This document shows positions 8,214 through 26,835 of a stretch of DNA of 64,000 bases, in pieces. Source of the DNA: an uncultured Roseibium sp. (GTDB lineage: Bacteria; Pseudomonadota; Alphaproteobacteria; Rhizobiales; Stappiaceae); NCBI RefSeq assembly GCF_947499295.1, contig NZ_CANMNP010000021.1:2092-66091 (forward strand). Direction: 5' to 3'. Position numbers and translations under genes: made by a program. Below the pieces are notes generated by a model. It was not told the origin of the DNA. It made no database searches and saw nothing but the letters and a program-made list of their open reading frames with translations. Position 1 is the stretch's first letter; every line of letters starts with the position of its first letter.

Positions 8214-9215
8214 ATGCGCTGGGGTCTTATTGGTGCAAGCCGAATTGCGTCGAGTTACGTCATTGATGCCATCCGGGCACAGGCAGACTGCGATATCCTG
8301 TCTGTCTTGAGCTCCAATGCATCTCGCGGCGCATCTTTCGCCGCAGACCACGGCATCGTGGACAGCTACACGGATCTTGACGCGCTTCTAACCGACCCGT
8401 CAGTCGACGCCGTTTACATCTCGACCACAAACGATAAGCACCACGCACAAGCCATGGCAGCCATTGCGGCCGGCAAACATGTTTTGTGTGAAAAACCGCT
8501 TGCAATGACGCTCGCCGAGGCCAACGAAATGGTACGCAGCGCTGAAGAAAAGGGTGTCGTCTTTGCGACCAATCATCATCTGCGCAACGCAGGATCGCAT
8601 CTTGCCATTCAAGATCTGATCGCGAACGGCCGCATTGGCAAAGTGCTCAGCGCACGCGTCTTTCACGCGGTCAATCTGCCGGAGCACCTCCGCGGTTGGC
8701 GCATCAATGACGCTGCAGCAGGCGGCGGTGTCATTCCGGACATCACCGTTCATGATGCCGACACCATCCGCTTTCATCTCTCTGAAGACCCTGTTGATGT
8801 GGTTGCCAAGTCTGGCTCTTCCGGCCTTGGCGAAGGCGTCGAGGACAGCGTCATGTCGGTCTGGAGCATGCCGTCGGGTGCGATGGTCCAGACCCATGAG
8901 AGCTTCACACATGGATATGCCGGGACCGGCATCGAGTTTCACGGCACAAAGGGCTCCATCTTCGCCCGCAACGTCATGACACAGGAACCTGTCGGCGAAA
9001 TCCGCCTGGTCGACGCGCAGGGTGAAGCGGCAATTTCCTACGAAAAGCACAATCTCTATCACCGCGCGCTCGGCTTGTTTGTTCAAGCCGTCGCGGGCCG
9101 TGGCCGGCCGTCAGCCAACGGTGTGGATGGCGTCAAGTCCCTGGCCGTCGCACTTGCAGTGCGTGAAGCAGCCAAATCCGGCAATGCCACTCGTGTCGAC
9201 TATGGAGGGTTATGA
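8214..9215 (+). CDS. afr: Gfo/Idh/MocA oxidoreductase, 1,5-anhydro-D-fructose reductase-like
   Basis: WGLIGAS, STTNxxH, HVLCEKPLA, TNHHLRNA, DITVHDADT and NVMTQxPVG closely follow my recollection of the Sinorhizobium Afr sequence. Confidence 0.75.
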   Translation: MRWGLIGASRIASSYVIDAIRAQADCDILSVLSSNASRGASFAADHGIVDSYTDLDALLTDPSVDAVYISTTNDKHHAQAMAAIAAGKHVLCEKPLAMTLAEANEMVRSAEEKGVVFATNHHLRNAGSHLAIQDLIANGRIGKVLSARVFHAVNLPEHLRGWRINDAAAGGGVIPDITVHDADTIRFHLSEDPVDVVAKSGSSGLGEGVEDSVMSVWSMPSGAMVQTHESFTHGYAGTGIEFHGTKGSIFARNVMTQEPVGEIRLVDAQGEAAISYEKHNLYHRALGLFVQAVAGRGRPSANGVDGVKSLAVALAVREAAKSGNATRVDYGGL

Positions 9216-9219
9216 GACC

Positions 9220-10794
9220 ATGTCCTCGAAAGTCGTTTCCATGGAAGATGCCGCCGCCCGGATCTCCGATGACGCCGTCGTGACCATTTCCTCCTCCTCC
9301 GGCCTCGGGTGTCCCGACAAGATACTGGAAGCAATTGGTGACCGGTTTGATCAGGAAGGACACCCGAGGAACCTCACGACGCTGCACCCGATTGCCGCCG
9401 GTGACATGTATGGCATCAAGGGCATCGACCACATTGCCAAAGATGGCTTGCTTTCCGCCATCATTGCCGGTTCCTATCCCTCAGGACCGTCTTCTTTGCC
9501 AATGCCGCAGATCTGGCAAATGCTGGTTGAAGACCGGGTCGCGGCTTACAATGTTCCCTCCGGCATCCTGTTTGACATGCACCGTGACGTAGCTGCCCGC
9601 CGCCCCGGCGTGTTTACGAAAATCGGGCTGGACACGTTTGTCGACCCCCGACGCCAGGGCTGCGCCATGAACGATGCGGCAAGCAAAAAGCCAATCGTCT
9701 CGCGCGTGGAACTTGGCGGCGAAACCTGGCTTCATTTTCCTAACATTGTTCCCGATGTCGCAATCATTCGCGCCACCACCGCAGATGAGCGCGGCAATCT
9801 GACCTATGAACACGAAGGGGCATATCTTGGCGGTCTTGAACAGGCGATTGCCGTGCGCAACCATGGCGGCCTGGTTATTGCACAGGTCAAGCGGATTACG
9901 GCCGCCGGGTCCTTGCGCCCGCATGATGTCAGGGTTCCGGGTCATCTGGTGGACTTGATCGTCGTCGACCCGGACCAGCGTCAGACAACTGAAACTGAAT
10001 ATGACCCGGCGATTTCCGGCGAAATCATGCGCCCTTGGTCCAGTTTCTCGCTCGCAGAACATGGCGTTGAAAAGATTGTTGCGCGCCGGGCAGCCATGGA
10101 GCTGAGCTCAGGCCAGACGGCGAATCTCGGTTTCGGCATCTCCGCCATGGTCCCGCGCGTCTTGCTGGAAGCAGGTCAGGAACAGGCAGTCACCTGGGCC
10201 ATCGAGCAAGGCGCGACCGGCGGTATGCCACTGACTGGTTTCGCCTTTGGTTGCGCATCCAATGCTGATGCCTACATGCCCTCGCCTCAGCAATTCACTT
10301 ACTTTCAGGGTGGTGGGTTCGACGTCTCCTTCCTGTCGTTTCTGGAGATCGATCTGGAAGGCAACGTGAATGTTTCCAAGCTCGGAAAGAAACCCTACCT
10401 GACGGCCGGTTGCGGCGGCTTTGTCGACATCACCGCGCATGCCCGAAAGATAGTGTTTTCCGGCCTCTTTGAGGCAGGCGCAGACCTTGACCTGAGCAAT
10501 GATGCACTAACGGTCAAATCCCCCGGCAAATTCACCAAGATGGTTGATGAGGTCGAACACATCACTTTCTCAGGCCGCAGAGCGCGCGAACTGGGGCAGG
10601 AAGTTCTCTATGTCACGGAACGCTGCGTCATCGAATTGAAGAATAACGGTCTGATGGCAACGGAAATCATGCCGGGCATCAATCCAGAACGCGACATTGT
10701 CGATGCTTCGAAGGGCCGCGTTCGTCTTGCCAACAGCCTGAAGGAAATGCCGAAGGCCCTCTTGCGGAGCGAAGCGATGGAGCTGAGCCTTTGA
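9220..10794 (+). CDS. Acyl-CoA:acetate CoA transferase (YdiF/Pct family, fused alpha/beta)
   Basis: DVAIIRATTADERGNL, NLGFGIS, IEQGATGG and GCGGFVDI motifs. Start reassigned to ATG 9220 after GGAGGG. Confidence 0.88.
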   Translation: MSSKVVSMEDAAARISDDAVVTISSSSGLGCPDKILEAIGDRFDQEGHPRNLTTLHPIAAGDMYGIKGIDHIAKDGLLSAIIAGSYPSGPSSLPMPQIWQMLVEDRVAAYNVPSGILFDMHRDVAARRPGVFTKIGLDTFVDPRRQGCAMNDAASKKPIVSRVELGGETWLHFPNIVPDVAIIRATTADERGNLTYEHEGAYLGGLEQAIAVRNHGGLVIAQVKRITAAGSLRPHDVRVPGHLVDLIVVDPDQRQTTETEYDPAISGEIMRPWSSFSLAEHGVEKIVARRAAMELSSGQTANLGFGISAMVPRVLLEAGQEQAVTWAIEQGATGGMPLTGFAFGCASNADAYMPSPQQFTYFQGGGFDVSFLSFLEIDLEGNVNVSKLGKKPYLTAGCGGFVDITAHARKIVFSGLFEAGADLDLSNDALTVKSPGKFTKMVDEVEHITFSGRRARELGQEVLYVTERCVIELKNNGLMATEIMPGINPERDIVDASKGRVRLANSLKEMPKALLRSEAMELSL

Positions 10795-11564
10795 GCGCAC
10801 TGCATCTCATACGCCACAGCCCGGTTGCCGAGCTGAAACTGGACAATCCGGGAAAGCTCAACGCGTTCACGCTGGAGATGTTGCGCGCGGTTGAACCGAT
10901 CTGCGACGACCTGGAGCGCGACCCGGGCATCCTTGCTGTTATCATCACTGCAGCAGACAGCAAAGCCTTCTGCGCCGGTGCCGACATACTGGAATGGTCT
11001 GAGCTTTCTCCCTACGAGTTTGCACGGCACTGGGTGCGTGAAGGTCACCGAGTATTCGATCGGCTGGCGCGATTGTCGAAACCCACAATTGCTGCTGTCG
11101 GCGCACATGCATTTGGCGGTGGACTTGAATTTGCTGCAACCGCAGACATTCGCATCATGGCCCCAGGCGCAACACTCGCCCTTCCCGAGGCTTCGGTCGG
11201 GATTGTCCCGGGCTGGTCGGGAACACAGCGGCTGATCCGCTTGCTCGGCGAGCCGCTGGTCAAGGAGATGGCCCTCTTCGGCCGCCGCATCTCGGCAGCG
11301 CGTGCCCATTCGATTGGGTTTGCAGCAGATATTGCCGAAGATCCGCGCTCTTTTGCCTTCGAGTGTGCTCAGAAACTTTCGGCCAGGTCCCAACATGCAT
11401 CCGAAGTGGCGAAATACATGATCCACGCGGCCGTTGGCGAAGATCGCGGTGCCATGATCGAGACCCTCGGGGCCGGCATGATCAGCCCGACCGACGACCG
11501 CAACGAAGGCGTCGCAGCCTTTCGTGAAAAGCGTAAACCGAACTTTTCCGGAAACCAGTCATGA
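10791..11564 (+). CDS. Enoyl-CoA hydratase/isomerase family
   Basis: AFCAGADI, GGGLEFA and PEASVGIVPG; both catalytic Glu positions are retained. Confidence 0.88.
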   Translation: MSALHLIRHSPVAELKLDNPGKLNAFTLEMLRAVEPICDDLERDPGILAVIITAADSKAFCAGADILEWSELSPYEFARHWVREGHRVFDRLARLSKPTIAAVGAHAFGGGLEFAATADIRIMAPGATLALPEASVGIVPGWSGTQRLIRLLGEPLVKEMALFGRRISAARAHSIGFAADIAEDPRSFAFECAQKLSARSQHASEVAKYMIHAAVGEDRGAMIETLGAGMISPTDDRNEGVAAFREKRKPNFSGNQS

Positions 11565-13081
11565 GCGAATTGAACGTTGTCTCCATTAGTGAAGCACAAA
11601 TCCCAAGCGAAACTTTTGTCGCCCGTCACCTGATCGACGGATCCTGGCAAGCCAGCACTGACGGCGCGACCTTTGAAAGAACTTCGCCGTCACATGGCTG
11701 CGTGGTCACCCTGGCCAGCAAGGGCAGCGCCCGGGATGTGGATGCCGCAATTTCCGCGGCCCGCCTCGCGTTCGACAAAGGCCGCTGGCCGCGAACATCC
11801 GGCAAGGAGCGAGCAACGCTATTGCTCAAGGTGGCTGACCTGATCGACCGGGAGCGCGATCGGATTGCCCTCATGGAAACTCTCGAGTCCGGCAAGCCAA
11901 TCAGCCAGGCAAAAGCCGAGATAGAAGGTGCCGCAGATATCTGGCGGTATGCAGCCTCGCTCGCACGTACGCTCCACGGCGAGAGTTACAATTCGCTTGG
12001 AAACGACTTTCTTGGTCTCGTTCTGAAGGAACCGATTGGTGTCGTTTCAATTATCACACCCTGGAATTTCCCGTTCCTTATTGTCACGCAAAAACTGCCA
12101 TTTGCGCTCGCAGCAGGTTGTACGGCGGTCATCAAGCCTTCCGAAATGACCCCTGCGACAACCGTGATCCTGGGCGAGCTTCTCCATGAAGCGGGATTGC
12201 CTGCCGGTGTTGTTAACATCATCCTTGGTTACGGCGATCCTGTTGGCGCTGCAATGACCGCAGACAAGCGGGTCGATATGGTGACCTTCACCGGTTCGAC
12301 AGCTGTCGGAAAATCCATCGTAAGCGCTGCTTCAGGCACCTTGAAAAAGGTTTCGCTGGAACTTGGCGGCAAGAACCCGCAAGTCATTTTTCCGGACGCG
12401 GACCTCGAAAGCGCAGTCGATGCCGTCGTGTTCGGCGTTTACTTCAATGCCGGCGAATGCTGCAACTCCGGATCCCGGATCATCGTGCACGAGGATATTG
12501 CCGAGGATTTTACGAAGCGAACGGTCGCGCTGTCGCGGCAAGTGCCCTTCGGCGACCCATTGGACCCATCGACCAAAGTCGGCGCGATCATCACACCCGA
12601 GCATCAAAACAAGATCGACAGATATGTTCGGGAAGCCGCCCGATCGGGAGCTACAGTTGAACTTGGTGGGGAGGCTTTGGCCGTTCCCGGCCTGAAGGGT
12701 CAGTTCTATCAGCCAACGGTGGTCTCCAATGTGAGGAGCAACATGCCGATTGCGCGCGAGGAAGTCTTTGGGCCCGTGTTGTCCGTTCTGACTTTCAAGA
12801 CGCTTGATGAAGCCATTGAGCTGGTCAACGACGCCGACTATGGACTTTCGGCCGGCGTTTGGAGTGACAACGTTCACACCTGCCTTGAATTCGCACGCCG
12901 TGCTCAGGCTGGAACTGTCTGGACCAACACCTGGATGGATGGATTTTCCGAACTTCCCTTCGGCGGTGTCAAGGAGAGCGGTCAGGGACGGGAGCTTGGC
13001 AAACACGGCCTTGAGGAATTTCTTGAAGCCAAAACCGTGACCATGCGGATCGGCCGCTCACGCGCGCCCTGGGTCTCCTGA
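11561..13081 (+). CDS. NAD(P)-dependent aldehyde dehydrogenase (sorbosone dehydrogenase-like)
   Basis: ITPWNFP, FTGST, LELGGKNP, AGECCNSG and EEVFGPV motifs. Confidence 0.92.
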   Translation: MSELNVVSISEAQIPSETFVARHLIDGSWQASTDGATFERTSPSHGCVVTLASKGSARDVDAAISAARLAFDKGRWPRTSGKERATLLLKVADLIDRERDRIALMETLESGKPISQAKAEIEGAADIWRYAASLARTLHGESYNSLGNDFLGLVLKEPIGVVSIITPWNFPFLIVTQKLPFALAAGCTAVIKPSEMTPATTVILGELLHEAGLPAGVVNIILGYGDPVGAAMTADKRVDMVTFTGSTAVGKSIVSAASGTLKKVSLELGGKNPQVIFPDADLESAVDAVVFGVYFNAGECCNSGSRIIVHEDIAEDFTKRTVALSRQVPFGDPLDPSTKVGAIITPEHQNKIDRYVREAARSGATVELGGEALAVPGLKGQFYQPTVVSNVRSNMPIAREEVFGPVLSVLTFKTLDEAIELVNDADYGLSAGVWSDNVHTCLEFARRAQAGTVWTNTWMDGFSELPFGGVKESGQGRELGKHGLEEFLEAKTVTMRIGRSRAPWVS

Positions 13082-13089
13082 TGAGACAC

Positions 13090-14139
13090 TTAGCCGGAAA
13101 TGGAAAACGGCCCATTGGGCTTGAGGAGAACCTGCATCTCCTCCATTGGCCTGCCGTCTATCCTTGCGAGCAGAACCTCAGCCATGGCGCGGCCCGTGGC
13201 GCGAAGGTCTTCGTCCACTGTCTCAATGCGCGGACGAAAATGATTGGAAATCGGAGAGGCGCGTTTGGCGACAAGATCGACTTCCTTTCCAGGGGTCAGC
13301 CCCATGTCATTCAGACCGGCAAGCGTGATCAAGGCCATCACTTCACCAACGCACACATATCCATCCGGCGCATCCGGTCCGGCGTGAAGCGCACGAAGTG
13401 TCGCGGCAATCTCGTCAGGTTCGCTGTCAAGATCTACACCTTCGGGGATCGTGAGCTGTGCACCACAGGAAATAGCCGCCTGCCGGGCCCCAAAGCGCAA
13501 GTGCTGCCCAAACGTGTACCGCTCATTCGGCATGACGATGCAAATATGCTGACGCCCTTTTTGAACAAGGCGCTCGATTGCCTGGCGCACGAAGGCCTCA
13601 TTGTCGAAGTCGACAAAGGGATGCGGCGTGGTGAAATCCGTCCGGCCGTGGCTGACAAACGGAAAGCCGTGCTCAAGCAGATATCGCACACGGTCATCGA
13701 AGCATTCTGTACGCGTGAACACGATGGCATCCGCAAGCGAATGGCGCCGTATCTGGCGGATTACATCCAGCCGGTCGCCGCCAAGGCTGTCGGCCGTGAT
13801 GTTGATTGCGTATCCGGTTCCCTGCAGTCCCTCACTCATACCGGCGAGAAACTCGGACGTGAAACTGAGATACTCGTGCCGGGTGTTGAGCAAAAGGCTA
13901 ATGACTTTTGTGCGGCCGGTGCGCAGCCGCTGCGCCGCACGGTTGGGAACGTAGCCTTGTCTGTTGGCAACTTCCGTAACCCGCTTGCGGGTGGCTTCCG
14001 CGATCCTGGGATCGTCGGCAAGTGCGCGCGAAACAGTGGTAACCGCAAGACCTGCCTCCGCCGCAACTGTGCGCAGGGTCGGTCGCGGCAAAACGTCAGC
14101 GGCATTTTCTTCTTTGGAAACCAAATTCTTTCGCGGCAT
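13090..14139 (-). CDS. LacI-family transcriptional regulator
   Basis: TLRTVAAEAGLAVTTVSRAL HTH, YVPNRAAQRL hinge and a sugar-binding domain. Confidence 0.9.
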   Translation of the reverse strand: MPRKNLVSKEENAADVLPRPTLRTVAAEAGLAVTTVSRALADDPRIAEATRKRVTEVANRQGYVPNRAAQRLRTGRTKVISLLLNTRHEYLSFTSEFLAGMSEGLQGTGYAINITADSLGGDRLDVIRQIRRHSLADAIVFTRTECFDDRVRYLLEHGFPFVSHGRTDFTTPHPFVDFDNEAFVRQAIERLVQKGRQHICIVMPNERYTFGQHLRFGARQAAISCGAQLTIPEGVDLDSEPDEIAATLRALHAGPDAPDGYVCVGEVMALITLAGLNDMGLTPGKEVDLVAKRASPISNHFRPRIETVDEDLRATGRAMAEVLLARIDGRPMEEMQVLLKPNGPFSISG

Positions 14140-14200
14140 GCCCGTTCAACTCACCCCAAGCCTTGTAGCGCAGAAACCAAAACAAGTCTAATCAGCTCAT

Positions 14201-14214
14201 TTATAACGTTACAA
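14201..14214. promoter_or_regulatory. LacI-type operator TTATAACGTTACAA
   Basis: Near-palindrome with an AACGTT core, upstream of the divergent LacI gene. Confidence 0.6.
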
Positions 14215-14308
14215 CAAAAATTTTTAACCCAGATCAGAATTTCGAAAAATCTTATAATAGTATGTAAAAAAAGAGCAAAACTAATTCCGAAACAAAATCG
14301 AAAAGCCA

Positions 14309-14339
14309 TTGACACAGATCATGTTTGCAACGTTACAAT
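14309..14339 (+). promoter_or_regulatory. sigma70-like promoter with LacI-type operator TTGCAACGTTACAA
   Basis: TTGACA at 14309-14314 and TACAAT at 14334-14339. The operator at 14325-14338 overlaps the -10. Confidence 0.6.
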
Positions 14340-14414
14340 AGACGTTGCGTAATCATCGGACTGACGGACACCCGCAATCCGAAACGCCTACTGGCACGCA
14401 AAGGGAGGAATACC

Positions 14415-15659
14415 ATGCGTAAATTGACCATGATGACAGCGGCTGCCGCCCTGATGGCAGCAAGCACCAGCGTTCAGGCGGAAGATGTTGAAGTTCTGCA
14501 CTGGTGGACATCCGGCGGCGAAGCAGCTGCTCTCAATGTTCTGAAAGAAGACTTGCAAGGCCAGGGCATTGGCTGGCAGGACATGCCGGTTGCCGGCGGC
14601 GGCGGAACCCAGGCCATGACCGTGCTTCGTGCCCGTGTTACCTCTGGCAACCCGCCTACTGCGGTTCAGATGCTCGGTTTTGATATCCTTGACTGGGCAG
14701 GCGAAGGCGCATTGGCCGACCTCAACATTCAGGCAGGCCTGGAAGGTTGGGACGATGTCGTGCCCGAGGCACTTCAGCAATTTGCCAAGCACGACGGCAA
14801 ATGGGTGTCTGCACCGGTCAACGTGCACTCCACCAACTGGGTATGGGCCAACAAGGCAATACTGGATGAACTGGGCATTGCCGTTCCGACGACCTGGGAT
14901 GAGTTTGTTGCCGCGCTTGAAAAAGTGAAGGCATCCGGCAAAACTCCGATTGCTCATGGCGGCCAAGCCTGGCAGGACGCAACTGTGTTTGATGCAGTCG
15001 CCATGTCAACCGGCGGTCCGGAGTTCTACAAGAAAGCCTTTATTGATCTCGACGAGGAAACCCTCGGTTCGGACACGATGAAGGAAGCCTTCGACCGGAT
15101 GGCTGTGATCCGTTCACACGTGGACGACAACTTTTCCGGCCGCGACTGGAACCTGGCTACAGCCATGGTGATCAACGGCGATGCCGCTTTCCAGATGATG
15201 GGCGACTGGGCAAAGGGTGAATTCCTGAACGCCGACAAGAAGCCGGACACGGACTTCCTGTGTTTCCGTTTCCCGGGCACTCAGGACCAGGTCACATTCA
15301 ATGCCGATCAGTTCGCAATGTTTGCGCAGGGCAAGGAAGTCGGCAAGGAGCAGGCTGCACTTGCAACTGCAATCCTGTCCCCGAGCTTTCAGTCAGCCTT
15401 CAATGTGGTCAAAGGGTCTGTTCCGGCACGCACGGATGTCTCCGACGATGCTTTTGATGCCTGCGGCAAGAAAGGCATGGCGGATCTGAAGGCAGCTGCT
15501 GACAGCGGCAACCTTTATGGCTCGATGGCCCATGGCCATGCGAACCCGGCAGCGGTGAAGAACGCCATGTACGATGTCATCACGGCACACTTCAACGGCG
15601 AATACGACAGCGCCACCGCCGTTGAGGAACTCGTGACCGCAGTACAAATCAACAAGTAA
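14415..15659 (+). CDS. Carbohydrate ABC transporter substrate-binding protein (CUT1)
   Basis: Sec signal ([22 protein letters not shown]), [16 protein letters not shown] and [19 protein letters not shown] before ATG 14415. Confidence 0.92.
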
Positions 15660-18610: not shown

Positions 18611-20095
18611 ATGAAAACCGCACCGGACATCGTCATCATTGGCAGCGGCATGGGCGGCGCGACCCTTGCTGCAGGTCTGGCGCCGTCCGGTGCACGCATA
18701 ACGATTCTGGAACGCGGGCATCACATACCCGACGATGCGCCAACGCGGGATCCTTGGCGCATTTATACCAACAGTGCATTCCGGTCCGATGAGACCTGGC
18801 TGGACGCCGAAAACAGGCCTTTTGAACCAGGCAACTATTACAATGTTGGTGGGAATTCCAAACTTTACGGCGCCGTTCTGCTCCGCTACCGGCAGGAAGA
18901 TTTCGGCGAACTGGAGCATTTTGACGGCGTATCTCCAGCCTGGCCGTTTGGTTATGAGGAGCTGGCACCCTGGTACGATGCCGCCGAAGCGCTCTACAAT
19001 GTGCGCGGCGACAGCAGCTCAGACGGCACGGAACCTCCGCATGCATCCGATTATCCTTTCCCACCTGTCCCTGATGAACCCGCGATCAAAATAGCGCGTC
19101 AGCGGCTTGAGAATGCAGACACCAAACCATTCAGTCTGCCGCTTGGCATCGACATCGACCGTTGGCTCCAAGCCGGTGAAACCGGCTGGGACGGCTATCC
19201 GGATGTTAGATGCGGCAAGATGGATGCCGAGACCTGTGCACTCGCGGAAGCCCTTTCCCATGACAATGTTGACCTGATCACGGGCGCCGAAGTCACCCGG
19301 CTTGAAATGGAGCCGGGTTCACGGCGCATCACCTCTGTAACCTACAGCAAGGACGGAACGGACAGGTCGTTGAAACCGGCATATGTCGTCTTATGTTCAG
19401 GCGCAGTTCAATCCGCGGCCACGCTGCTCCGGTCAGGTGTTGCCAACAGCTCCGGTTACGTTGGCCGCTGTTTCATGAATCACAACGCAACAGCTGTCAT
19501 CGCCGTCGATCCGAGATTTCGAAACGATGCTGTCTACCAAAAAACCTTCGGTATCAACGACTGGTATCTGTCCGACGGGTCGGAGGGGAAACCGCTTGGC
19601 AATGTGCAACTTCTCGGACGGGTCACGCCCGATATCTTGAAAATTCAGGTACCTTATTTGCCGATGTTCGCCGCCCGCTGGGTGTCACACCACGCATTGG
19701 ACCTTTATCTGATCTCAGAAGACCTGCCGGATCCTGAAAGCCGGGTGGTTCTGAAGGATGGCAAGATCCAACTGCGCTGGCGGCGGTCGAACATGACCGC
19801 GCACACCAAACTCGTCGCCAAGACAAAGAATACTCTTCGAAAGGCAGGCTTTCCGATTATTCTGACGCGCCTCTTCGACGGACGTGTGCCGTCGCACCAA
19901 TGCGGCACGGTTCGATTGGGAAGCGATCCGGAAACATCCGTTGTTGATCCTGATTGCCGTTCCTGGGACCACCCGAACCTTTTTGTAGCAGACGCAGCAG
20001 CACTGCCGACGTCAGCTGCCGTCAATCCGGCACTGACGGTCGCAGCCCTTGCCCTTCGCACCGCCAAAAGAATTGAAAAGGATATGGCGGCATGA
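18611..20095 (+). CDS. GMC-family FAD oxidoreductase
   Basis: GSGMGG, NVGGNSKLYGA and HQCGTVRLG...HPNLFVADA motifs. No signal peptide. Confidence 0.88.
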   Translation: MKTAPDIVIIGSGMGGATLAAGLAPSGARITILERGHHIPDDAPTRDPWRIYTNSAFRSDETWLDAENRPFEPGNYYNVGGNSKLYGAVLLRYRQEDFGELEHFDGVSPAWPFGYEELAPWYDAAEALYNVRGDSSSDGTEPPHASDYPFPPVPDEPAIKIARQRLENADTKPFSLPLGIDIDRWLQAGETGWDGYPDVRCGKMDAETCALAEALSHDNVDLITGAEVTRLEMEPGSRRITSVTYSKDGTDRSLKPAYVVLCSGAVQSAATLLRSGVANSSGYVGRCFMNHNATAVIAVDPRFRNDAVYQKTFGINDWYLSDGSEGKPLGNVQLLGRVTPDILKIQVPYLPMFAARWVSHHALDLYLISEDLPDPESRVVLKDGKIQLRWRRSNMTAHTKLVAKTKNTLRKAGFPIILTRLFDGRVPSHQCGTVRLGSDPETSVVDPDCRSWDHPNLFVADAAALPTSAAVNPALTVAALALRTAKRIEKDMAA

Positions 20096-20850
20096 CCAAG
20101 ACTGCACTCGTCACAGGCGGACAAAGAGGCATTGGACGCGGCATTTGCGAAGCGCTCGTCAAGGCGGGCTACCAGGTCGCGCTTCTTGCCCAGGTCGAAT
20201 CCGACGATCGGGACGTAATCGATGCGCTCGATCAGCTCGGCTCAAAAGCTCGGTACTATCGTCACGACCTTCAGGAAGTAGCGGGTCACGCTGCCATACT
20301 CGACCGCATCGAAAACGAGCTCGGCTCCATCACCACACTTGTTTCAAATGCGGGCGTGCCGGCCAAATCACGTGGTGACCTGCTTGAGGTTCAACCAGAC
20401 AGTTTTGATTTCGTTCTGGGCGTCAACCTGCGGGGTGCTTTCTTTCTTGCGCAAGAAGTAGCGCGGCGAATGCTTGCAGTGCCTTCAGAGGCCTACCGGT
20501 CCTTGATCTTCGTGACCTCGGTCAGTGCCGAGATGGTGTCCGTAGAGCGCGCCGAATATTGCGTGTCGAAGGCCGGTGCAGCGATGATGGCGGACCTTTT
20601 TACCGCAAGGCTGGCGCCTCACGGCATTGGTGTCTTCCAGATACAGCCAGGCATCATTGAAAGCCCGATGACCGCAAGTGTGAAAGACAAATACACCACA
20701 CGCATCGATGACGGCCTCGTACCGGTCCGGCGATGGGGCCAGCCGGAGGACATCGGCTCTGCAGTTGTCCCCCTGGTGCAGGGACAAATGGCCTACGCAA
20801 CAGGCACGACGATCAAGGTTGACGGCGGGCTTTCAATCCCACGCCTTTGA
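20092..20850 (+). CDS. Short-chain dehydrogenase/reductase
   Basis: TGGQRGIG, NAG and YCVSK motifs. Confidence 0.9.
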   Translation: MTKTALVTGGQRGIGRGICEALVKAGYQVALLAQVESDDRDVIDALDQLGSKARYYRHDLQEVAGHAAILDRIENELGSITTLVSNAGVPAKSRGDLLEVQPDSFDFVLGVNLRGAFFLAQEVARRMLAVPSEAYRSLIFVTSVSAEMVSVERAEYCVSKAGAAMMADLFTARLAPHGIGVFQIQPGIIESPMTASVKDKYTTRIDDGLVPVRRWGQPEDIGSAVVPLVQGQMAYATGTTIKVDGGLSIPRL

Positions 20851-20853: not shown

Positions 20854-22452
20854 ATGAAAATGGAAAACGGCTACGACTTCATCATAATCGGTGGCGGAAG
20901 CGCAGGGTCGGTTGTTGCGGCCCGACTGACCGAGGATCCGAACATCCAGGTGCTTCTTCTGGAAGCCGGAGGGCGTGACCGTCACCCATTTTATCATTTG
21001 CCGGCAGGTTTCGCGAAAATGACCAAGGGCATCGGGTCATGGGGTTGGCATACAGTCCCGCAAAAGCACATGAACAACAGGGTCTTCCGCTATACGCAAG
21101 CCAAGGTGATTGGCGGCGGGTCCGCGATCAACGCTCAGATTTACACACGCGGAAACGCCCGGGACTACGACGAATGGCGTCAACTGGGATGCGAGGGATG
21201 GGGTTTTGACGATGTCCTGCCCTACTACCGGAAAGCTGAAGACAACGACACTTATGACAACCGGTATCACGGCAAGGGTGGACCGCTCGGCGTTTCGAAG
21301 CCTTGTGCGCCTCTTCCGATTTGCGAAGCTTATTTCGAAGCAGCGGCCAAGCTGGGCATTCCAAGAAACGAAGACGTGACCGGCGAGACACAGGACGGAG
21401 TTGCCTACTATCAGTTGACCCAGAAAAATGCGCGCAGGTCGTCTGTGGCGATGGCCTATCTCGCCCCAAATCGTGACCGTTCCAATCTGCATGTGCGCAC
21501 CGGCGCCAATGTTCGCCGGATCGTTGTGGAGGGTGGCAGGGCAACAGGCGTGGAATTGGTCGACGGTACCAGGCTCTCAGCCGGCACGGAAGTCATCCTT
21601 TCTTCCGGTTCCATCGGCTCGCCGCGCCTTCTCCAACTTTCGGGTATCGGCCCGGCAGCAGAGTTGCGTGATCTTGGAATTGACGTCGTTCTCGATCGGC
21701 CTTCCGTCGGTACAAACCTTCAGGATCACCTGGATCTTTATTGTATCTGCGAGGTCAGCGGCCCGCACACTTACGACCGTTTCGCCAAACCGCATCTGTC
21801 AGTGCTTGCCGGACTGCAATACATCTTCACGCGGCGTGGGCCGGTATCCTCCAGTCTCTTTGAAACGGGAGGCTTCTGGTACGCAGATCCGGAAGCACGC
21901 TCGCCGGATCTTCAGTTTCACCTTGGTCTTGGTACCGGCATCGAATCCGGTGTCGCGGCAATGCCGGACGGCGGCGTCACGCTCAATTCGTGCTACCTGC
22001 GACCGCGCTCGCGCGGAACCGTCCGGCTCCGCAGTTCAGACCCCTCGGATGAGCCTCTGATCGACCCGAACTACCTGCAAGACCCCAAAGATCGCGAGAT
22101 GTCGATCCGAGGGCTCAGGCTCACACAGGAAATCCTGGCACAGGAACCGTTGAAACCGTTCATAAAGGCAGAGCGACTTCCTGGCCCCGATATCAAGAGC
22201 GATGAGGCCTACTTTCGCTTCATCTGCGAACACTCAAAGACGTCCCACCACCCAGCCGGCACATGCCGGATGGGCATTGACGACCAGGCGGTCGTTGACC
22301 CCAGATTGCGGTTCAACGGCATCGAAAATTTGCGTGTCGTCGATGCCTCCATCATGCCGAATGTCATTTCGTCCAACACCAATGCTGCGGCCATCATGAT
22401 CGGCGAAAAAGCCTCCGACATGATCCGCCAAGATCACGGAACCACATCATGA
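20854..22452 (+). CDS. GMC oxidoreductase (choline/L-sorbose dehydrogenase-like)
   Basis: GGGSAG, AKVIGGGSAIN, GTNLQDH, HHPAGTCRMG and SSNTNAAAIMIGEK motifs. Confidence 0.9.
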   Translation: MKMENGYDFIIIGGGSAGSVVAARLTEDPNIQVLLLEAGGRDRHPFYHLPAGFAKMTKGIGSWGWHTVPQKHMNNRVFRYTQAKVIGGGSAINAQIYTRGNARDYDEWRQLGCEGWGFDDVLPYYRKAEDNDTYDNRYHGKGGPLGVSKPCAPLPICEAYFEAAAKLGIPRNEDVTGETQDGVAYYQLTQKNARRSSVAMAYLAPNRDRSNLHVRTGANVRRIVVEGGRATGVELVDGTRLSAGTEVILSSGSIGSPRLLQLSGIGPAAELRDLGIDVVLDRPSVGTNLQDHLDLYCICEVSGPHTYDRFAKPHLSVLAGLQYIFTRRGPVSSSLFETGGFWYADPEARSPDLQFHLGLGTGIESGVAAMPDGGVTLNSCYLRPRSRGTVRLRSSDPSDEPLIDPNYLQDPKDREMSIRGLRLTQEILAQEPLKPFIKAERLPGPDIKSDEAYFRFICEHSKTSHHPAGTCRMGIDDQAVVDPRLRFNGIENLRVVDASIMPNVISSNTNAAAIMIGEKASDMIRQDHGTTS

Positions 22453-22763
22453 TCCGCCATATCGTTCTCATCAAATTCAATCCGGATGTAACGGAAGAGA
22501 CGATCGCCGAGCTCTTTCAGGAGCTTCGCGAGATCGAAAAGCAGGTACCGGGCATCCGCGACATCACGTCCGGACGCAGCGAGAGCCCTGAGAAAATAGA
22601 ACGCGGTTACATGCACGGTTTTGTTGTCGATTTCGATGACTGGGACGCACTGGAACGGTATCAGATCCATCCCGATCACAAGGCGCTCGGCGCCAAACTG
22701 GTCGCCAACGCCATCGGCGGAATTGACGGCATTCTGGTGCTGGATATTCCAGTGCCGGCCTGA
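22449..22763 (+). CDS. Dabb (stress-responsive A/B barrel) protein
   Basis: IRHIVLIKF...HGFVVDFDDWDALERYQIHPDH. Confidence 0.85.
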   Translation: MIRHIVLIKFNPDVTEETIAELFQELREIEKQVPGIRDITSGRSESPEKIERGYMHGFVVDFDDWDALERYQIHPDHKALGAKLVANAIGGIDGILVLDIPVPA

Positions 22764-22792
22764 GCAGCTGCCAACAAAATCCGGAGCCGCAG

Positions 22793-23956
22793 ATGCTGAA
22801 CCTCCCGACTTACGAAAACAGGCTCGAAGTTTATACGCCGACAGGCGATGCCCTGACACCGCGAGCCCCACGAACAACGTTGACCCGTACCGCTTTTGCA
22901 GCCGCCCATGTGGTCTCCGACCCGCTTGCTGAACGCGCGCCCTGGGAGGGATCCCCCGCGGTGGACTGGGACAATACATTGCGATTCCGTCGCTGGCTCT
23001 GGGACCAGGGCCTTGGACTGGCAGAGGCCATGGATACGGCACAGCGCGGCATGGGCGTTGACTGGCCAACGGCAAAGGAACTGATCGAACGCACCATGCG
23101 AGAAGCCAAGGTGCATCCGTTGAAACCGCGTGTTGCCTGTGGTGCCGGGACGGACCAGAAAGCGCCGGAAGAGCTGGCAACACTCCATGACATTCAAGCA
23201 GCCTATTGCGAGCAGATGGAAGCGATTGAGGCTGCAGGCGGGCAAATCATCTTGATGGCATCACGCGCCTTTCCAGCTATCGATGCCAGTGCCGACGATT
23301 ATGCCAAAGCCTATAGTGCATTGCTTGAGCAAGCGTCTGAACCAGTGGTTCTTCACTGGCTGGGAAACATGTTTGATCCCGCTTTGAAAGGATACTGGGG
23401 CAGTGAAGACGTTGACACAGCATCAGACCTCGTTCTTCAGATCATCAATGCAAACAAATCGAAGGTCGACGGCATCAAGATATCGCTTTTGGATCAGGCG
23501 CACGAAGAAAGCTTTCGTGCACGGCTACCCGAAGGTGTCCGTCTCTATACCGGTGATGACTTCAACTACGCTCCGTTGATTGAGGGCGATGGCACGCGCC
23601 ATTCCCACGCACTTCTGGGTGCTTTCGCAGCCATTGCGCCGGTGGCGAGCCAGGCATTGGAAGCGCTTGCGGAAAATGATCTTGAAACCTACCACGCGCT
23701 GTTCGCACCGACAGTTCCCCTCAGCCGCGAATTGTTCAAGGCGCCAACCCGTTTCTACAAGGCGGGAATTGCCTTTCTGGCGTGGTTGAACGATGCCCAG
23801 AACCACTTCGTCATGCCGGGCGGGTTTCAATCTTCGCGTGAAATTACGCATTATGCCGAGGTCTTTCGGCTTGCAGACAAGGCTCGATTGTTGTCAAAGC
23901 CTGATATAGCCGTGGAACGAATGCGACTTTTGTTAAAGCTTCACGGCGTTGGTTGA
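22793..23956 (+). CDS. DUF993 family (DHDPS/class I aldolase-like TIM barrel)
   Basis: AFAAAHVVSDP, AEAMDTAQRGMG, HWLGNMFDPAL, DGIKISLL and YTGDDFNY motifs. Confidence 0.82.
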   Translation: MLNLPTYENRLEVYTPTGDALTPRAPRTTLTRTAFAAAHVVSDPLAERAPWEGSPAVDWDNTLRFRRWLWDQGLGLAEAMDTAQRGMGVDWPTAKELIERTMREAKVHPLKPRVACGAGTDQKAPEELATLHDIQAAYCEQMEAIEAAGGQIILMASRAFPAIDASADDYAKAYSALLEQASEPVVLHWLGNMFDPALKGYWGSEDVDTASDLVLQIINANKSKVDGIKISLLDQAHEESFRARLPEGVRLYTGDDFNYAPLIEGDGTRHSHALLGAFAAIAPVASQALEALAENDLETYHALFAPTVPLSRELFKAPTRFYKAGIAFLAWLNDAQNHFVMPGGFQSSREITHYAEVFRLADKARLLSKPDIAVERMRLLLKLHGVG

Positions 23957-23973
23957 TCAGCTTTGGAAGGCGA

Positions 23974-24981
23974 ATGAAGAAAAGACCGACGATCCTGGAT
24001 GTCGCAAAACACGCCGGTGTATCAAAATCGACCGTGTCGCTCGTTTTGCAGAATTCCCCGTCGGTGAAGAAGTCGACCCGCGATGAAGTCAACCACGCCA
24101 TCGAAATCCTCGGCTATGTCTACAACAGATCAGCGGCCGGTTTGCGCGGCGCGTCATCAGGACTGGTCGGACTGATTATCAATGACTTGCGAAATCCGTT
24201 CTTCACCGAGTTCGCAGCATCGGCTCAGATGACCTTTGCGCGCAAAGGCTATTCAACGGTTGTTGCCAACACGGACGAAGACCCTGAGACTCAATCTCAG
24301 GTGATCGCTTCCATGATTGAGCATGGCGTCTCGGCATTCGTGATTTCTCCGGCCTATGACGCAAGTGGCTCAGCCTTTGACAGCATCCAGCGTGCCGGCA
24401 TTCCAACGCTACAGGTCCTCAGACAGATCGATGAGAGAACCAGCGTCTTTCCGTTCGCTTCGCACAATTATGTTGCCGGGGGAGAGTTGGCAACAAACCA
24501 CTTGATTGAAGCAGGTTGCCGAAAAATAGCCTTTGCCGGGGGCCTGGAAGAGCGCCCGGTCACCCTGGAAAGGATGTCGGGATACTGCAATGTCATGAAG
24601 GCGCGAGGCCTTCCCGTCGAAACTTTCTATGGCCGCCCGTCGCGAGCCTTCGGCCGTGAAATCGCACTGGAGATCACGACCAAGCATCCGGATATCGACG
24701 CGGCGATATGCTTCAGTGATCTGGTGGCTCTCGGCATGCTGTCCGGTTTTGCTGAAGCAGGTGTGCGCGTTGGAGATGAATTCAAGCTCATCGGCTTCGA
24801 CGACATTGAAGAAAGTTCCCTTGTCTATCCCCGTCTCAGTTCTGTACGGTGCGACACCGGAGCGTTCGGAGAACACGCGGCAGAAGCCATGCTTGCGTGG
24901 ATTGTGGATGGCGTACGTCCACCCGACACCAAGCGCTACGACGTGGAACTGATCAAACGCCAATCCAGCCTCGGAATCTGA
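23974..24981 (+). CDS. LacI-family transcriptional regulator
   Basis: TILDVAKHAGVSKSTVSLVL HTH, YVYNRSAAGL and IGFDDI motifs. Confidence 0.92.
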   Translation: MKKRPTILDVAKHAGVSKSTVSLVLQNSPSVKKSTRDEVNHAIEILGYVYNRSAAGLRGASSGLVGLIINDLRNPFFTEFAASAQMTFARKGYSTVVANTDEDPETQSQVIASMIEHGVSAFVISPAYDASGSAFDSIQRAGIPTLQVLRQIDERTSVFPFASHNYVAGGELATNHLIEAGCRKIAFAGGLEERPVTLERMSGYCNVMKARGLPVETFYGRPSRAFGREIALEITTKHPDIDAAICFSDLVALGMLSGFAEAGVRVGDEFKLIGFDDIEESSLVYPRLSSVRCDTGAFGEHAAEAMLAWIVDGVRPPDTKRYDVELIKRQSSLGI

Positions 24982-24983
24982 TC

Positions 24984-26246
24984 ATGAAAATTAGCCCTGA
25001 TGCGCTCTTGAAGCGCCTGTTCGATGTTGCCGTCGCGGCGGCCGATCCGATGGTCTGTGTTCCAAAACACCTGCCGGAAAAACCCCCTGGCCGCTGTTTG
25101 GTTATTGGAGCCGGCAAAGCCTCTGCGCGTATGGCGGAAGCGCTCGAGGCGGCGTGGGGTCCGGTTGACGGGCTTGTCATTACACGCGATGGCTACGCGA
25201 GGCCCTGCGCCGGAATAGAGGTAATAGAAGCGTCTCATCCGGTCCCGGACCAGCGAGGTCTCGACGCCACTGCCAGACTTTTGGAACTCCTCGAAGGTCT
25301 TGAAGACGGTGATAGGGTCATCGCTCTTATCTCCGGCGGTGCGTCCGCATTACTGGAAAATCCAGCTGGTGAAATCTCGCTCGAAGACTTGCGCAAACTC
25401 AACGAGGATCTTCTGTCCTCCGGCGCGCCCATCGATCAGATGAATACGGTGAGGAAGCATGTGAGCCGCGTCAAAGGCGGACAGCTGGCAGCGGCCGCCT
25501 ATCCTGCGCACATGACCTCGCTGATCGTTTCCGACGTCGCAGGCGACGACCCCGCCTTTATTGCATCTGGTCCGACTGTTGGAGACAACACCAGCTCTGA
25601 AGATGCGAAGTCGATTTTGGCAAGCAACGAAATCAAAATTCCAAAATCCATTGAAGAGGTGCTGATGGCGCCAACCGGCGTATTGCCGGTGGGTGCACCA
25701 AAGCTGTCACAGACTGAAAACATCATTGTCGCCGCACCTTCCTTGTCCCTAAATGCGGCAAGCGAATTGGCTGAGGCGGAAGGAATTGCGGTTACGCTCT
25801 TGGGCGATGCCATTGAGGGCGAAGCGCGTGACCTTGCACAAGAGCATGCAAGCCTGGCCCTTAAGGTACAGGCAGAGCTTTCACCCGGTGACAAGCCCCG
25901 GCTGCTCCTCTCAGGCGGAGAATGTACCGTCACGCGCCGAGGTGACGGTATCGGTGGACCAAACGCGGAATATGCACTCGCGCTCGCATTGGCTTTGAAC
26001 AACCAGCCGGGCATTTACGCAATTGCCTGCGATACGGATGGTGTGGACGGAGCAGCGGATGTTGCCGGGGCACGCGTCAGTCCTCAGACATTGTCAAAGG
26101 CATCAGAAAATGGGGTCAATGCGGCGGCCATGCTGGCGGGCAACGACAGTCACAGTTTCTTTGATTTGATCGGCGACCAGATTGTCACAGGCCCAACTTT
26201 GACCAATGTGAACGATTTCCGGGCAATCCTGATCGAAAGTGTCTGA
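24984..26246 (+). CDS. Glycerate 2-kinase (TtuD/MOFRL family)
   Basis: GAGKAS, ASHPVPD, ISGGASAL, SGGECTVT, DTDGVDG and TLTNVNDFR motifs. Start at ATG 24984. Confidence 0.88.
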   Translation: MKISPDALLKRLFDVAVAAADPMVCVPKHLPEKPPGRCLVIGAGKASARMAEALEAAWGPVDGLVITRDGYARPCAGIEVIEASHPVPDQRGLDATARLLELLEGLEDGDRVIALISGGASALLENPAGEISLEDLRKLNEDLLSSGAPIDQMNTVRKHVSRVKGGQLAAAAYPAHMTSLIVSDVAGDDPAFIASGPTVGDNTSSEDAKSILASNEIKIPKSIEEVLMAPTGVLPVGAPKLSQTENIIVAAPSLSLNAASELAEAEGIAVTLLGDAIEGEARDLAQEHASLALKVQAELSPGDKPRLLLSGGECTVTRRGDGIGGPNAEYALALALALNNQPGIYAIACDTDGVDGAADVAGARVSPQTLSKASENGVNAAAMLAGNDSHSFFDLIGDQIVTGPTLTNVNDFRAILIESV

Positions 26247-26835
26247 AATGCGGGACCTTGAAGCACGGATCAATGCCGCAGAAGCATTGATTTTCGATTG
26301 CGACGGGACGCTCTTGAAGACGCCGGATCTATATACGCTTGGCTGGCAGTCAGCTTTTGGCGCAGCAGGGCTGAAGATGGATGCAGATTGGTATCACGCG
26401 CGCGCCGGCATGTCCGAACATGTGCTCATGGATGAGTTCGAGGCGGAAAGGGGCGTGACCCTCGATCGCAGCAAGACAGTCCGCGACCTCCGAAAGGCCG
26501 TCCTTCGGCAAATGCACACGGTCGCGGAAATCCCTGCCATCGCCTCAATTGCCCGCAAGTATCATGACAGAAAACCGGTCGCTGTGGCATCGGGAGGCCC
26601 AAAGGCCATTGTGATCCCGGCTTTGGAGGCGGCCGGTTTACTGCCGCTTTTCAAGTCCGTCGTCACAATGGACGACGTCGCCAACGCAAAGCCCTCGCCG
26701 GACCTGTTTCTTTTGGCTGCCGAAAATCTGGCAATTCCAGCAAAGGCCTGTCTGGTCTTTGAAGATAGTCCACAGGGGCTACTTGCCGCCGAAAGAGCCG
26801 GGATGTCAGCAATTGACGTAAACGGTCTTATGTAG
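26239..26835 (+). CDS. HAD-superfamily phosphatase (beta-PGM/YqaB-like)
   Basis: IFDCDGTL, ASGG, KPSPD and VFEDS motifs. Confidence 0.88.
   Translation: MSEMRDLEARINAAEALIFDCDGTLLKTPDLYTLGWQSAFGAAGLKMDADWYHARAGMSEHVLMDEFEAERGVTLDRSKTVRDLRKAVLRQMHTVAEIPAIASIARKYHDRKPVAVASGGPKAIVIPALEAAGLLPLFKSVVTMDDVANAKPSPDLFLLAAENLAIPAKACLVFEDSPQGLLAAERAGMSAIDVNGLM

Follow-up and report, generated by a model that had tools for sequence, protein, structure and literature searches.

An island of genes around 1,5-anhydro-D-fructose reductase in Roseibium suggests a CoA-dependent route for the breakdown of anhydro sugars

How do aerobic bacteria open the ring of a 1,5-anhydrosugar? According to a 2025 review (PMC12441222), the anaerobic route relies on a phosphotransferase system (PTS) and glycyl-radical enzymes. 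The same review describes an aerobic route in the Rhizobiaceae, in which 1,5-anhydro-D-fructose reductase (AFR) is followed by hydroxylation at C1 to give mannose. It attributes the second step to a still unidentified P450-like enzyme, so that, as of the review, the aerobic enzyme that opens the ring of anhydromannitol was still unidentified. We studied a locus that bears on this question, at positions 8214-26835 of a 64,000-nucleotide stretch of DNA from an uncultured Roseibium species (hereafter, the window). A first-pass annotation, made from the sequence alone, had proposed that the sugar genes and the acyl-CoA genes at this locus together open the ether ring of 1,5-anhydrosugars. It left out the published route via AFR and C1 hydroxylation to mannose.

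We hold firmly that this locus is a conserved, co-regulated island centered on AFR, and that its core chemistry runs from a primary alcohol to an aldehyde, an acid, and an acyl-CoA, followed by a crotonase-type elimination. Its gene content suggests an undescribed way for aerobes to break down anhydro sugars, via CoA-bound sugar acids. We tentatively favor the view that the island is the Roseibium copy of a conserved afr regulon for a gluco- or manno-configured pyranose that is barred from entering glycolysis directly. Among possible substrates, we consider 1,5-anhydro-D-fructose and the 1,5-anhydrohexitols the most likely.

Layout and conservation of the island

Our gene map combines six-frame open reading frames (ORFs) with Pfam and NCBIfam scans of the window (Table 1). 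All of the genes that the first-pass annotation named are at this locus, with each of the sugar and acyl-CoA functions that it had listed, but it overlooked the Dabb gene and the genes for both LacI-family regulators. It also described one co-oriented cluster. Most of the genes are indeed on the plus strand, but LacI 1 is on the minus strand, and there are two transcription units. The first contains afr and the genes for a CoA-transferase (CoAT), a crotonase (ECH), and an aldehyde dehydrogenase (ALDH), and the second is a 12.4-kb operon that runs from the gene for a solute-binding protein (SBP) to the gene for a HAD-family phosphatase. Neighboring genes mostly overlap by 4 bp or lie a few bases apart; for example, the start of the Dabb gene overlaps the end of the GMC2 gene by 4 bp. 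The wider gaps are 275 bp between the divergent genes for LacI 1 and the SBP, 56 bp between the SBP and the first permease, and 29 bp between Dabb and DUF993. Because the genes otherwise overlap or nearly touch, we describe the island as two operons.

To see how widely the island occurs, we compared CoAT to one genome per species with tblastn (E <= 1e-3), which gave at least 585 stretches that encode a relative. We then counted neighbors in the best 80 of these, which are 76-90% identical to CoAT and come mostly from marine Rhodobacterales and Hyphomicrobiales. These 80 loci span dozens of genera of soil and marine Alphaproteobacteria, and many of the bacteria are associated with algae. Among them, ECH is adjacent in 79, AFR in 67, ALDH in 65, the ABC transporter genes in about 64, GMC1 in 61, and SDR in 50; GMC2 was seen in 39, a count that is limited by the 10-kb flank. 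So the expectation that the CoAT and crotonase genes would accompany afr in other genomes was borne out, in 67 of the 80 best loci. When the class was sampled evenly, a strong homologue turned up in only 5 of 400 other genomes, and the island is patchy, as is usual for accessory catabolic loci.

A close relative is in Roseibium porphyridii KMA01, which was isolated from the red microalga Porphyridium: a 49-kb record from this bacterium is 90% identical at the DNA level and keeps the gene order. (That record, NZ_CP120864.1, is labeled "plasmid unnamed1". It is non-mobilizable and carries genes for folate biosynthesis, nitrate assimilation, and hydroxyproline, and it may be a piece of the chromosome or a mis-circularized contig.) In Peteryoungia, the order is identical, including Dabb-DUF993-LacI-glycerate kinase. 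The first-pass annotation had also predicted a similar neighborhood in Sinorhizobium, and we found it around the biochemically characterized afr of S. meliloti. There the order is DUF993 and then, as a separate block, LacI-afr-CoAT-ECH-ALDH-SBP-permeases-ATPase-GMC-SDR-GMC-glycerate kinase. The characterized gene, SMc04400, lies inside this same 14-gene cluster, which published tags place at SMc04389-SMc04402 (the anchors are leuB, or SMc04405; SMc04390, an "L-sorbose dehydrogenase"; SMc04391, an SDR; and SMc04392, a dehydrogenase). We also note that CP090106.1, a 3.7-Mb S. meliloti record that is labeled "plasmid pSymB", carries leuB, asd, and SMc044xx genes and is the chromosome.

The island comes in two types. 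An orthologue of the DUF993 protein (70-81% identity) is encoded directly downstream in 21 of 30 genomes tested (type I). The other nine genomes lack an adjacent DUF993 gene, the same nine lack the SDR, and six of these nine lack AFR. We extended seven of the nine further downstream, and in all seven, GMC2, with or without Dabb, and a LacI are followed by a flavoprotein of about 700 amino acids from the FAD_binding_2 family (type II). These fumarate-reductase/KstD-like flavoproteins are 68-71% identical to each other and replace the SDR and DUF993. Three of the seven type II clusters add a 389-amino-acid Gfo/Idh/MocA enzyme whose best model is levoglucosan dehydrogenase (LgdA-like), and two of the seven add a PfkB kinase. 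The best model for this kinase is KdgK (NF052444), at 241-259 bits, with the next model at 115 bits; because these scores are below the NCBIfam equivalog cut-off of 400, we call it KdgK-like at most. Dabb comes after GMC2 in both types of cluster, and LacI 2 is conserved after DUF993 or Dabb in both. Thus, the ABC system, GMC2, ALDH, CoAT, and ECH form the invariant core, and Dabb and a LacI usually accompany it. One alternative module is AFR, SDR, DUF993, and glycerate kinase, and the other is the flavoprotein, to which the Gfo enzyme and the KdgK-like kinase may be added.

The two operons also share an operator. With one mismatch allowed, the palindrome TKGNAACGTTNCMA matches five times in 64 kb, and every match falls in one of the two promoter regions, with three upstream of afr and the other two between the genes for LacI 1 and the SBP. 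By chance we would expect 0.54 matches, and no shuffle reached five. Across 55 full-length loci, matches to the motif gather just upstream of afr/CoAT and of the SBP gene, and the S. meliloti spacer that corresponds to the afr promoter region carries TTGGAACGTTCCAA. Because both promoters have a common operator that is conserved across genera, we consider the two operons to be one conserved LacI regulon. Judging from these sites, which are putative operators, the regulon is probably repressed by LacI.

Table 1. Features of the island in the window, with the positions of two further proteins in related loci (the locus is given before the colon)
Feature	Position	Strand	Match or remark
LacI-type operator palindromes (putative), three: TGGGAACGTTCAAA, TTGGAACGTTCCAG, TTGGAACGTTCCAA	8041..8195		afr promoter region
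1,5-anhydro-D-fructose reductase (AFR) orthologue, Gfo/Idh/MocA	8214-9215	+	PDB matches 2GLX, 4KOA
Fused family-I (YdiF-type) CoA-transferase (CoAT)	9220-10794	+	Pfam CoA_trans
Crotonase / enoyl-CoA (de)hydratase (ECH)	10791-11564	+	Pfam ECH_1 4e-45
NAD(P)-dependent aldehyde dehydrogenase (ALDH)	11561-13081	+	Pfam Aldedh 3.5e-170
LacI-family regulator 1, convergent with ALDH, divergent from ABC operon	13090-14139	-	matches LacI-annotated R. porphyridii gene
LacI operators (putative), two: TTATAACGTTACAA, TTGCAACGTTACAA	14201..14338		ABC-operon promoter region
CUT1 solute-binding protein (SBP), glucose-binding type	14415-15659	+	601 bits to 4R2B
ABC permeases, two	15716-16621, 16618-17493	+	Pfam BPD_transp_1
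MalK-type ABC ATPase	17498-18607	+	Pfam ABC_tran + OB_MalK
GMC1, divergent cytoplasmic GMC flavoprotein	18611-20095	+	partial GMC_oxred N and C domains
SDR, PRK12745 "3-ketoacyl reductase" type	20092-20850	+	NF009386
GMC2, choline-dehydrogenase-like flavoprotein	20854-22452	+	PRK02106 565 bits, below 605-bit cut-off
Dabb (dimeric alpha/beta-barrel) protein	22449-22763	+	Pfam Dabb 2.5e-23
DUF993 protein	22793-23956	+	PF06187 5e-172
LacI-family regulator 2 (start codon uncertain)	23953-24981	+	Pfam LacI + Peripla_BP
Class II (MOFRL) glycerate 2-kinase	24984-26246	+	DUF4147 2e-79, MOFRL 2e-33
HAD-IA sugar-phosphate phosphatase (YqaB / beta-PGM family)	26239-26835	+	Pfam and NCBIfam scans
Flavoprotein of type II clusters	L088:4280-6370, L089:8476-10620, L090:8709-10811, L091:2798-4948, L092:2593-4779, L093:7351-9417, L094:7330-9396		
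Second SBP	L013:17063-18325, L066:17130-18398, L082:17123-18394		

Predicted roles of the proteins

Judging from its sequence, the reductase is a genuine orthologue of AFR, as the first-pass label of "Afr-like" had implied. It matches 2GLX and 4KOA at 384 and 383 bits over residues 2-331 (the next match in the PDB has 100 bits), and it is 57% identical to the characterized AFR of S. meliloti. In the alignment to 2GLX, the EKP motif (LCEKPLAM) and the DITVHDAD motif are identical; according to the AFR structure paper, the Lys of EKP and the Asp/His pair of DITVHDAD are reportedly catalytic.

The next two proteins keep their catalytic residues as well. CoAT matches YdiF (2AHU) at 333 bits over residues 5-520, and its E329 lines up with E333, the catalytic residue of YdiF. 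ECH matches ECH_1 with E = 4.3e-45, and its GGGLE and LALPEASVG motifs carry both of the catalytic Glu residues, by comparison with the motifs of rat ECH. By analogy to CaiB and CaiD, the pair is best read as a CoA-dependent dehydratase of a sugar acid.

The transporter points to a glucose-like ligand. The SBP is 67% identical to 4R2B (601 bits, with a TM-score of 0.96), whose PDB title is "sugar transporter Oant_3817 ... with bound glucose", and it is 45-47% identical to glucose-binding proteins from Pseudomonas and SAR11. The S. meliloti afr cluster encodes an SBP that is in turn 86.6% identical to 4R2B, which makes 4R2B an orthologue from this kind of island. These similarities suggest that the SBP binds a glucopyranose. 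The corresponding S. meliloti gene, smc04396, is reported to be induced by dextrin and is not listed as responding to glucose (PMC4960864). Some clusters also have a second, divergent SBP (about 46-50% identity, with the motif MHFWTSGGE) among the ABC genes, which hints at a second ligand.

Among solved structures, GMC2 is closest to a chloramphenicol primary-alcohol oxidase (390 bits) and to choline dehydrogenase (387 bits). Its matches to alcohol and choline oxidases are lower than these two, and glucose oxidases reach only about 155 bits. So GMC2 is probably of the primary-alcohol oxidase type, and this fits the proposal, already in the first-pass annotation, that a GMC oxidase and the ALDH convert an alcohol to an aldehyde and then to an acid. 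The nearest solved relatives of GMC1 are more distant: the catalytic subunit of FAD-glucose dehydrogenase (116 bits) and the large subunit of fructose dehydrogenase (70 bits). The SDR matches NF009386 at 336 bits, above the cut-off of 250 bits. It co-varies strictly with DUF993 in the afr clusters, and SDRs adjoin DUF993 in unrelated clusters too.

The DUF993 protein had been called class I aldolase-like, and this holds for the predicted fold only. Foldseek with the AlphaFold model (pLDDT 75) finds 4DNH first and then structures of NanA and DapA (E of about 1e-8, target TM-scores of 0.72-0.77), so the model has a (beta/alpha)8 fold of the NAL/DHDPS type. In that family, the Lys that forms the Schiff base sits on strand beta-6. 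K229 of the DUF993 protein, in a DGIK motif, is invariant and lies on the sixth predicted strand of the barrel, a placement that is consistent with a Schiff-base role, although an hhalign comparison to a DHDPS-family protein was not significant. On the other hand, the Pfam scan matched PF06187 only and not PF00701, a profile search of the PDB found 4DNH only, to which the protein sequence also matches at 446 bits, and strand beta-5 reads LHWLG, without the catalytic Tyr that is expected of NAL/DHDPS. We therefore consider DUF993 to be a separate family with a related fold, and, given the model, a candidate Schiff-base aldolase or C-C lyase that acts on a 2-keto acid. We found no mention of DUF993 in the searchable literature. 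The protein in 4DNH, SMc04132, is a paralogue from another S. meliloti locus, not the afr-linked copy.

Similar partners accompany DUF993 on S. meliloti pSymA, on an Octadecabacter plasmid, and in the actinobacterium Glaciihabitans, three contexts besides the afr island. There it lies with a CoA-transferase (family I or III); with either a hydratase (ECH or MaoC) or an acyl-CoA dehydrogenase and electron-transfer flavoprotein (ETF); with an SDR of the PRK12745 type or else a Gfo enzyme; with a xylose-isomerase-like TIM protein; and with glycerate kinase. The link between CoA-dependent (de)hydration, DUF993, and glycerate is therefore general rather than peculiar to the afr island. The module on pSymA (L083:2167-12721) is paralogous to the island. 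It has a CoAT that is 60% identical, probably an unlisted ECH, glycerate kinase, an aldo-keto reductase, acyl-CoA dehydrogenase, SDR, DUF993, the xylose-isomerase-like TIM protein, and ETF alpha/beta, and its gene content resembles a beta-oxidation-like route that would take some other hydroxy acid to glycerate.

The top NCBIfam matches of the glycerate kinase are to archaeal glycerate 2-kinases, at 233 bits against a cut-off of 550. Among the clusters that we examined, the HAD phosphatase is found only in the window and in R. porphyridii; in S. meliloti and Peteryoungia, it is absent after the glycerate kinase. It is of the YqaB/HxpB sugar-phosphate type. We speculate that it could repair anhydrohexitol-6-phosphates that arise from a side activity of hexokinase, by analogy to mammalian G6PC3.

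A tentative pathway and its rivals

How might these proteins act together? The glucose-type CUT1 ABC system would import the sugar, and AFR would reduce anhydrofructose to 1,5-anhydro-D-mannitol, which has been shown for the Sinorhizobium orthologues. Anhydroglucitol may enter through oxidation of the ring by GMC1. GMC2 and ALDH would convert the primary alcohol at C6 to a carboxylate, the YdiF-type CoAT would form the thioester, and the crotonase would take off the beta-hydroxyl, so that the logic of CaiB/CaiD would be applied to a sugar acid. The enol ether formed in this way would then open, probably with help from Dabb or from oxidation of C3 by the SDR, to give a 2-keto-3-deoxy-hexonate (or a 2,4-diketo-3-deoxy-hexonate). 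With oxidation at C3, by the SDR in type I clusters or by the LgdA-like enzyme in type II clusters, the intermediate would be a vinylogous ester, which water would open readily, and DUF993 would then cleave the 2,4-diketo-3-deoxy-hexonate to pyruvate and glycerate. Alternatively, Dabb or DUF993 might hydrate the enol ether to 3-deoxy-D-erythro-hexulosonate (D-KDG), with DUF993 as the KDG aldolase. The C3 unit would end as D-glycerate, and the MOFRL kinase would convert it to 2-phosphoglycerate. The KdgK-like kinase in some of the variant clusters that lack DUF993 fits a 2-keto-3-deoxy-hexonate as the product, as the first-pass annotation had proposed.

Stereochemistry would also speak for anhydromannitol. 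Once the numbering of the chain is inverted, only the manno configuration would give D-KDG or D-glycerate, and the gluco configuration would give the L-threo acid or L-glycerate. That would explain why AFR is strictly selective for the manno product, and why anhydroglucitol would be funneled through epimerization by GMC1 and AFR.

We hold the mechanism even more tentatively than the regulon itself: it is possible, but somewhat doubtful, that aerobes open the 1,5-anhydro ring via the CoA thioester of the C6 acid, with the crotonase as the dehydratase and with DUF993 as a new Schiff-base family that releases pyruvate and a precursor of glycerate. Several points weigh against it. In a 1,5-anhydrohexitol that has been oxidized at C6, C4 bears the beta-hydroxyl and the alpha carbon bears the ring oxygen. 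Because the ring oxygen is alpha to the thioester, elimination gives an alpha-alkoxy-acrylyl enol ether in which the ring is still closed. Alpha-alkoxy-acrylates are chemically stable and are not readily hydrolyzed, so the crotonase product would not simply hydrolyze, as the first-pass annotation had assumed, and a catalyst that it did not name is needed. AFR also reduces 2-keto-aldoses, and its activity in vitro is the sole experimental tie of the cluster to a substrate. About 15% of the clusters lack AFR, the nearest solved orthologue of the SBP was crystallized with glucose, and glycerate kinase adjoins DUF993 in only 12 of the 21 type I genomes. The scheme does not explain the flavoprotein of about 700 amino acids in the type II clusters, and what GMC1, SDR, and Dabb would do is guesswork. 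The first-pass annotation had claimed a role for nearly every gene; the SDR, GMC1, Dabb, and LacI genes get no real role from it. The core of its pathway is plausible and new, and its ring opening and several of its gene assignments are conjectural.

A serious rival, although we think it unlikely, is oxidation at C1 via mannonate. It keeps the same substrates and opens the ring without CoA: GMC1 or an unlinked P450-like enzyme would convert anhydromannitol to mannose by abstracting hydride from C1, and a second oxidation would lead to mannonolactone and then mannonate. CoAT and the crotonase would be a CoA-dependent mannonate dehydratase that yields KDG, Dabb could be a mutarotase-like helper, and the exit would be of the non- or semi-phosphorylative Entner-Doudoroff type, with DUF993 or the KdgK-like kinase, ALDH, and glycerate kinase. 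The conversion of anhydromannitol to mannose is reported for S. morelense, as summarized in PMC12441222, and this counts against our preferred route as well. The best solved relatives of GMC1 oxidize ring carbons of sugars (C1 in FAD-glucose dehydrogenase), and the Dabb gene overlaps the stop codon of GMC2. Also, dehydration of an alpha-hydroxy-beta-hydroxy-acyl-CoA to a 2-keto-3-deoxy acid needs no separate step to open the ring, and some variant clusters have KdgK-like kinases. Nevertheless, GMC2 and ALDH are in the invariant core even where GMC1 is missing, and oxidation at C1 leaves this pair unexplained. ALDH is kept in the clusters that lack DUF993, where no glyceraldehyde would form. 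And if a single enzyme released mannose or glucose, then ordinary hexose catabolism would be enough, and there would be no need for an island of 15 genes.

We think it about equally improbable that the substrate is some other glucose-like compound rather than a 1,5-anhydrosugar, with AFR acting only as a 2-keto-sugar reductase. The candidates are glucose or a glucoside that is oxidized at C6 to a uronate or glucuronide, a precursor of a hexarate, or a furanoid 1,4- or 3,6-anhydro sugar. (The ring oxygen of a furanoid anhydro sugar would sit beta to the thioester, which would allow direct ring opening by the crotonase.) CoAT and ECH would then be a CoA-dependent uronate or aldonate lyase, and the SDR would resemble KduD, DEH reductase, or tartronate-semialdehyde reductase. 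The glucose in 4R2B, an orthologue of the afr-cluster SBP, would make sense, and the SDR, DUF993, and glycerate kinase recall the logic of GarL-GarR-GarK. Elsewhere, DUF993 is paired with a protein of the sugar phosphate isomerase/epimerase family (the xylose-isomerase-like TIM barrel). In addition, most type II clusters lack AFR, and some have the LgdA-like dehydrogenase. But AFR is present in 67 of the 80 loci and is translationally coupled to CoAT, and the enzymes orthologous to it act specifically on anhydrofructose and osones. The bacteria in question already possess the standard routes for glucose and uronates, the reported induction of smc04396 was by dextrin rather than glucose (PMC4960864), and the island has no conserved glycosidase or lyase gene in the 80 loci.

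Finally, sugar genes and acyl-CoA genes from unrelated pathways might be neighbors by chance, as the two operons, the two different LacI regulators, and the slightly different operator variants might suggest, but this is very improbable: dozens of genera from two orders share the gene order, 4-bp overlaps or gaps of a few bases join afr/CoAT/ECH/ALDH and GMC1/SDR/GMC2/Dabb, and one family of operators is at both promoters, so we consider that the synteny excludes it.

Surroundings, related pathways, and implications

The genes on either side of the island seem to have other functions. Upstream, 618-5967 (minus strand) and 6277-8029 contain a hydroxyproline-type cluster, as assigned from the matching annotation of R. 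porphyridii: members of the proline racemase family, cis-3-hydroxy-L-proline dehydratase, an FAD oxidoreductase, and a DHDPS-family protein, as well as GntR and winged-helix regulators and a VOC protein. These upstream genes are not kept beside afr in other genera. Downstream, 26838-31164 (minus strand) and beyond contain cysG and assimilatory nitrate reductase and then nirBD and a nitrate ABC transporter (also according to the R. porphyridii record), which are unrelated to the island. Near 42 kb, the G+C content climbs from about 0.56 to about 0.62 and this part of the window (about 42000-64000) may have a different origin. Within the island, we rejected a plus-strand ORF of 423 amino acids (13081-14352) because it matches no family and is antisense to a clear LacI gene. 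Conserved antisense frames are present in many of the related loci and may mislead ORF-based annotation of high-GC DNA. When we called the longest ORFs in the 80 loci, many conserved "families" proved to be antisense artefacts of the high-GC DNA, and no further conserved gene was found outside the island.

The island can be compared to several known systems. It shares an AFR orthologue, and the same cluster, with the AFR pathway of S. morelense and S. meliloti (EC 1.1.1.292; Kuhn et al. 2006, as summarized in PMC12441222). In that summary, the published pathway ends at the "P450-like" hydroxylation of C1, and the CoA, GMC, SDR, and DUF993 genes are not connected with it. More broadly, we did not find a link between afr and CoA genes in the literature that we searched. 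The anaerobic route of E. coli for anhydroglucitol and anhydromannitol (PTS and YbiW/PflD; PMC12441222) has the same substrates and faces the same problem of ring opening, but it uses radical, oxygen-sensitive chemistry on 6-phosphates, whereas the chemistry of the island would be cytoplasmic, based on flavin, NAD, and CoA, and found in aerobes.

The closest analogy for the CoA steps is the dehydration of carnitine by CaiB/CaiD, in which CoA transfer activates the acid, a crotonase with two Glu residues removes the beta-hydroxyl, and the product-CoA can recycle the CoA. However, the island's transferase is of family I (YdiF type) instead of family III, and its presumed substrate is a polyhydroxylated, alpha-oxygenated sugar acid. 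The later steps that we predict resemble non- and semi-phosphorylative Entner-Doudoroff pathways, which run from a 2-keto-3-deoxy-hexonate to pyruvate and a C3 unit and then through glycerate to 2-phosphoglycerate; the MOFRL kinase and the KdgK-like kinase of the variants are in keeping with this. Those pathways employ KDG aldolase, glyceraldehyde dehydrogenase, and a MOFRL glycerate 2-kinase, or else KDG kinase. In the island, CoAT and the crotonase would replace the dehydratase, and the candidate aldolase, DUF993, has no profile link to PF00701. Ether rings are also opened by 3,6-anhydro-L-galactonate cycloisomerase and by the unsaturated uronyl hydrolases of GH88/GH105, which turn an anhydro or enol-ether acid into a 2-keto-3-deoxy acid. 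But these are either enolase-superfamily enzymes or glycoside-hydrolase-type hydratases, their substrates are free acids rather than CoA thioesters, and the island has no homologue of them. The diketo-hydrolase routes for L-rhamnose and L-fucose and "route III" for pentoses combine an SDR-type 4-dehydrogenase with a C-C hydrolase, and the co-variation of SDR, DUF993, and glycerate kinase is similar, in that such a pair could convert a 2-keto-3-deoxy acid to pyruvate and a hydroxy acid, in this case glycerate; the hydrolases of those routes are from the FAH family, whereas DUF993 is predicted to be a Lys-bearing TIM barrel.

We considered other models and rejected them. The deoxyribonate/glyceryl-CoA pathway would require a BKACE enzyme, which the island lacks, and DUF993 looks like an enzyme for alpha-keto acids. 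Pathways for dimethylsulfoniopropionate and acrylate (AcuN/AcuK, DddA/DddC) or for polyethylene glycol-type ethers do not agree with a glucose-type SBP and a linked AFR. Levoglucosan has no free hydroxyl at C6 for GMC2 and ALDH to act on.

The island is the only genetic context of AFR, which is the one known aerobic enzyme for these sugars. If our proposal is correct, then CoA-dependent dehydration would add a new means of processing sugar acids and would be the first CoA-dependent step in the cleavage of a monosaccharide ring, and it would provide the missing oxygen-tolerant route for 1,5-anhydroglucitol. An oxygen-tolerant enzyme that degrades 1,5-anhydroglucitol would have therapeutic use for type Ib glycogen storage disease and for G6PC3 neutropenia (PMC12441222). 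DUF993 would gain a function, which its structure 4DNH has been without since 2012, and annotations such as "choline dehydrogenase", "3-ketoacyl-ACP reductase", and "DHDPS family" would be corrected. The long-standing gap in ring opening can now be tested directly in S. meliloti 1021. And if the proposal holds, anhydro sugars from algae and plants would have a route into the carbon cycle of the ocean and the rhizosphere.

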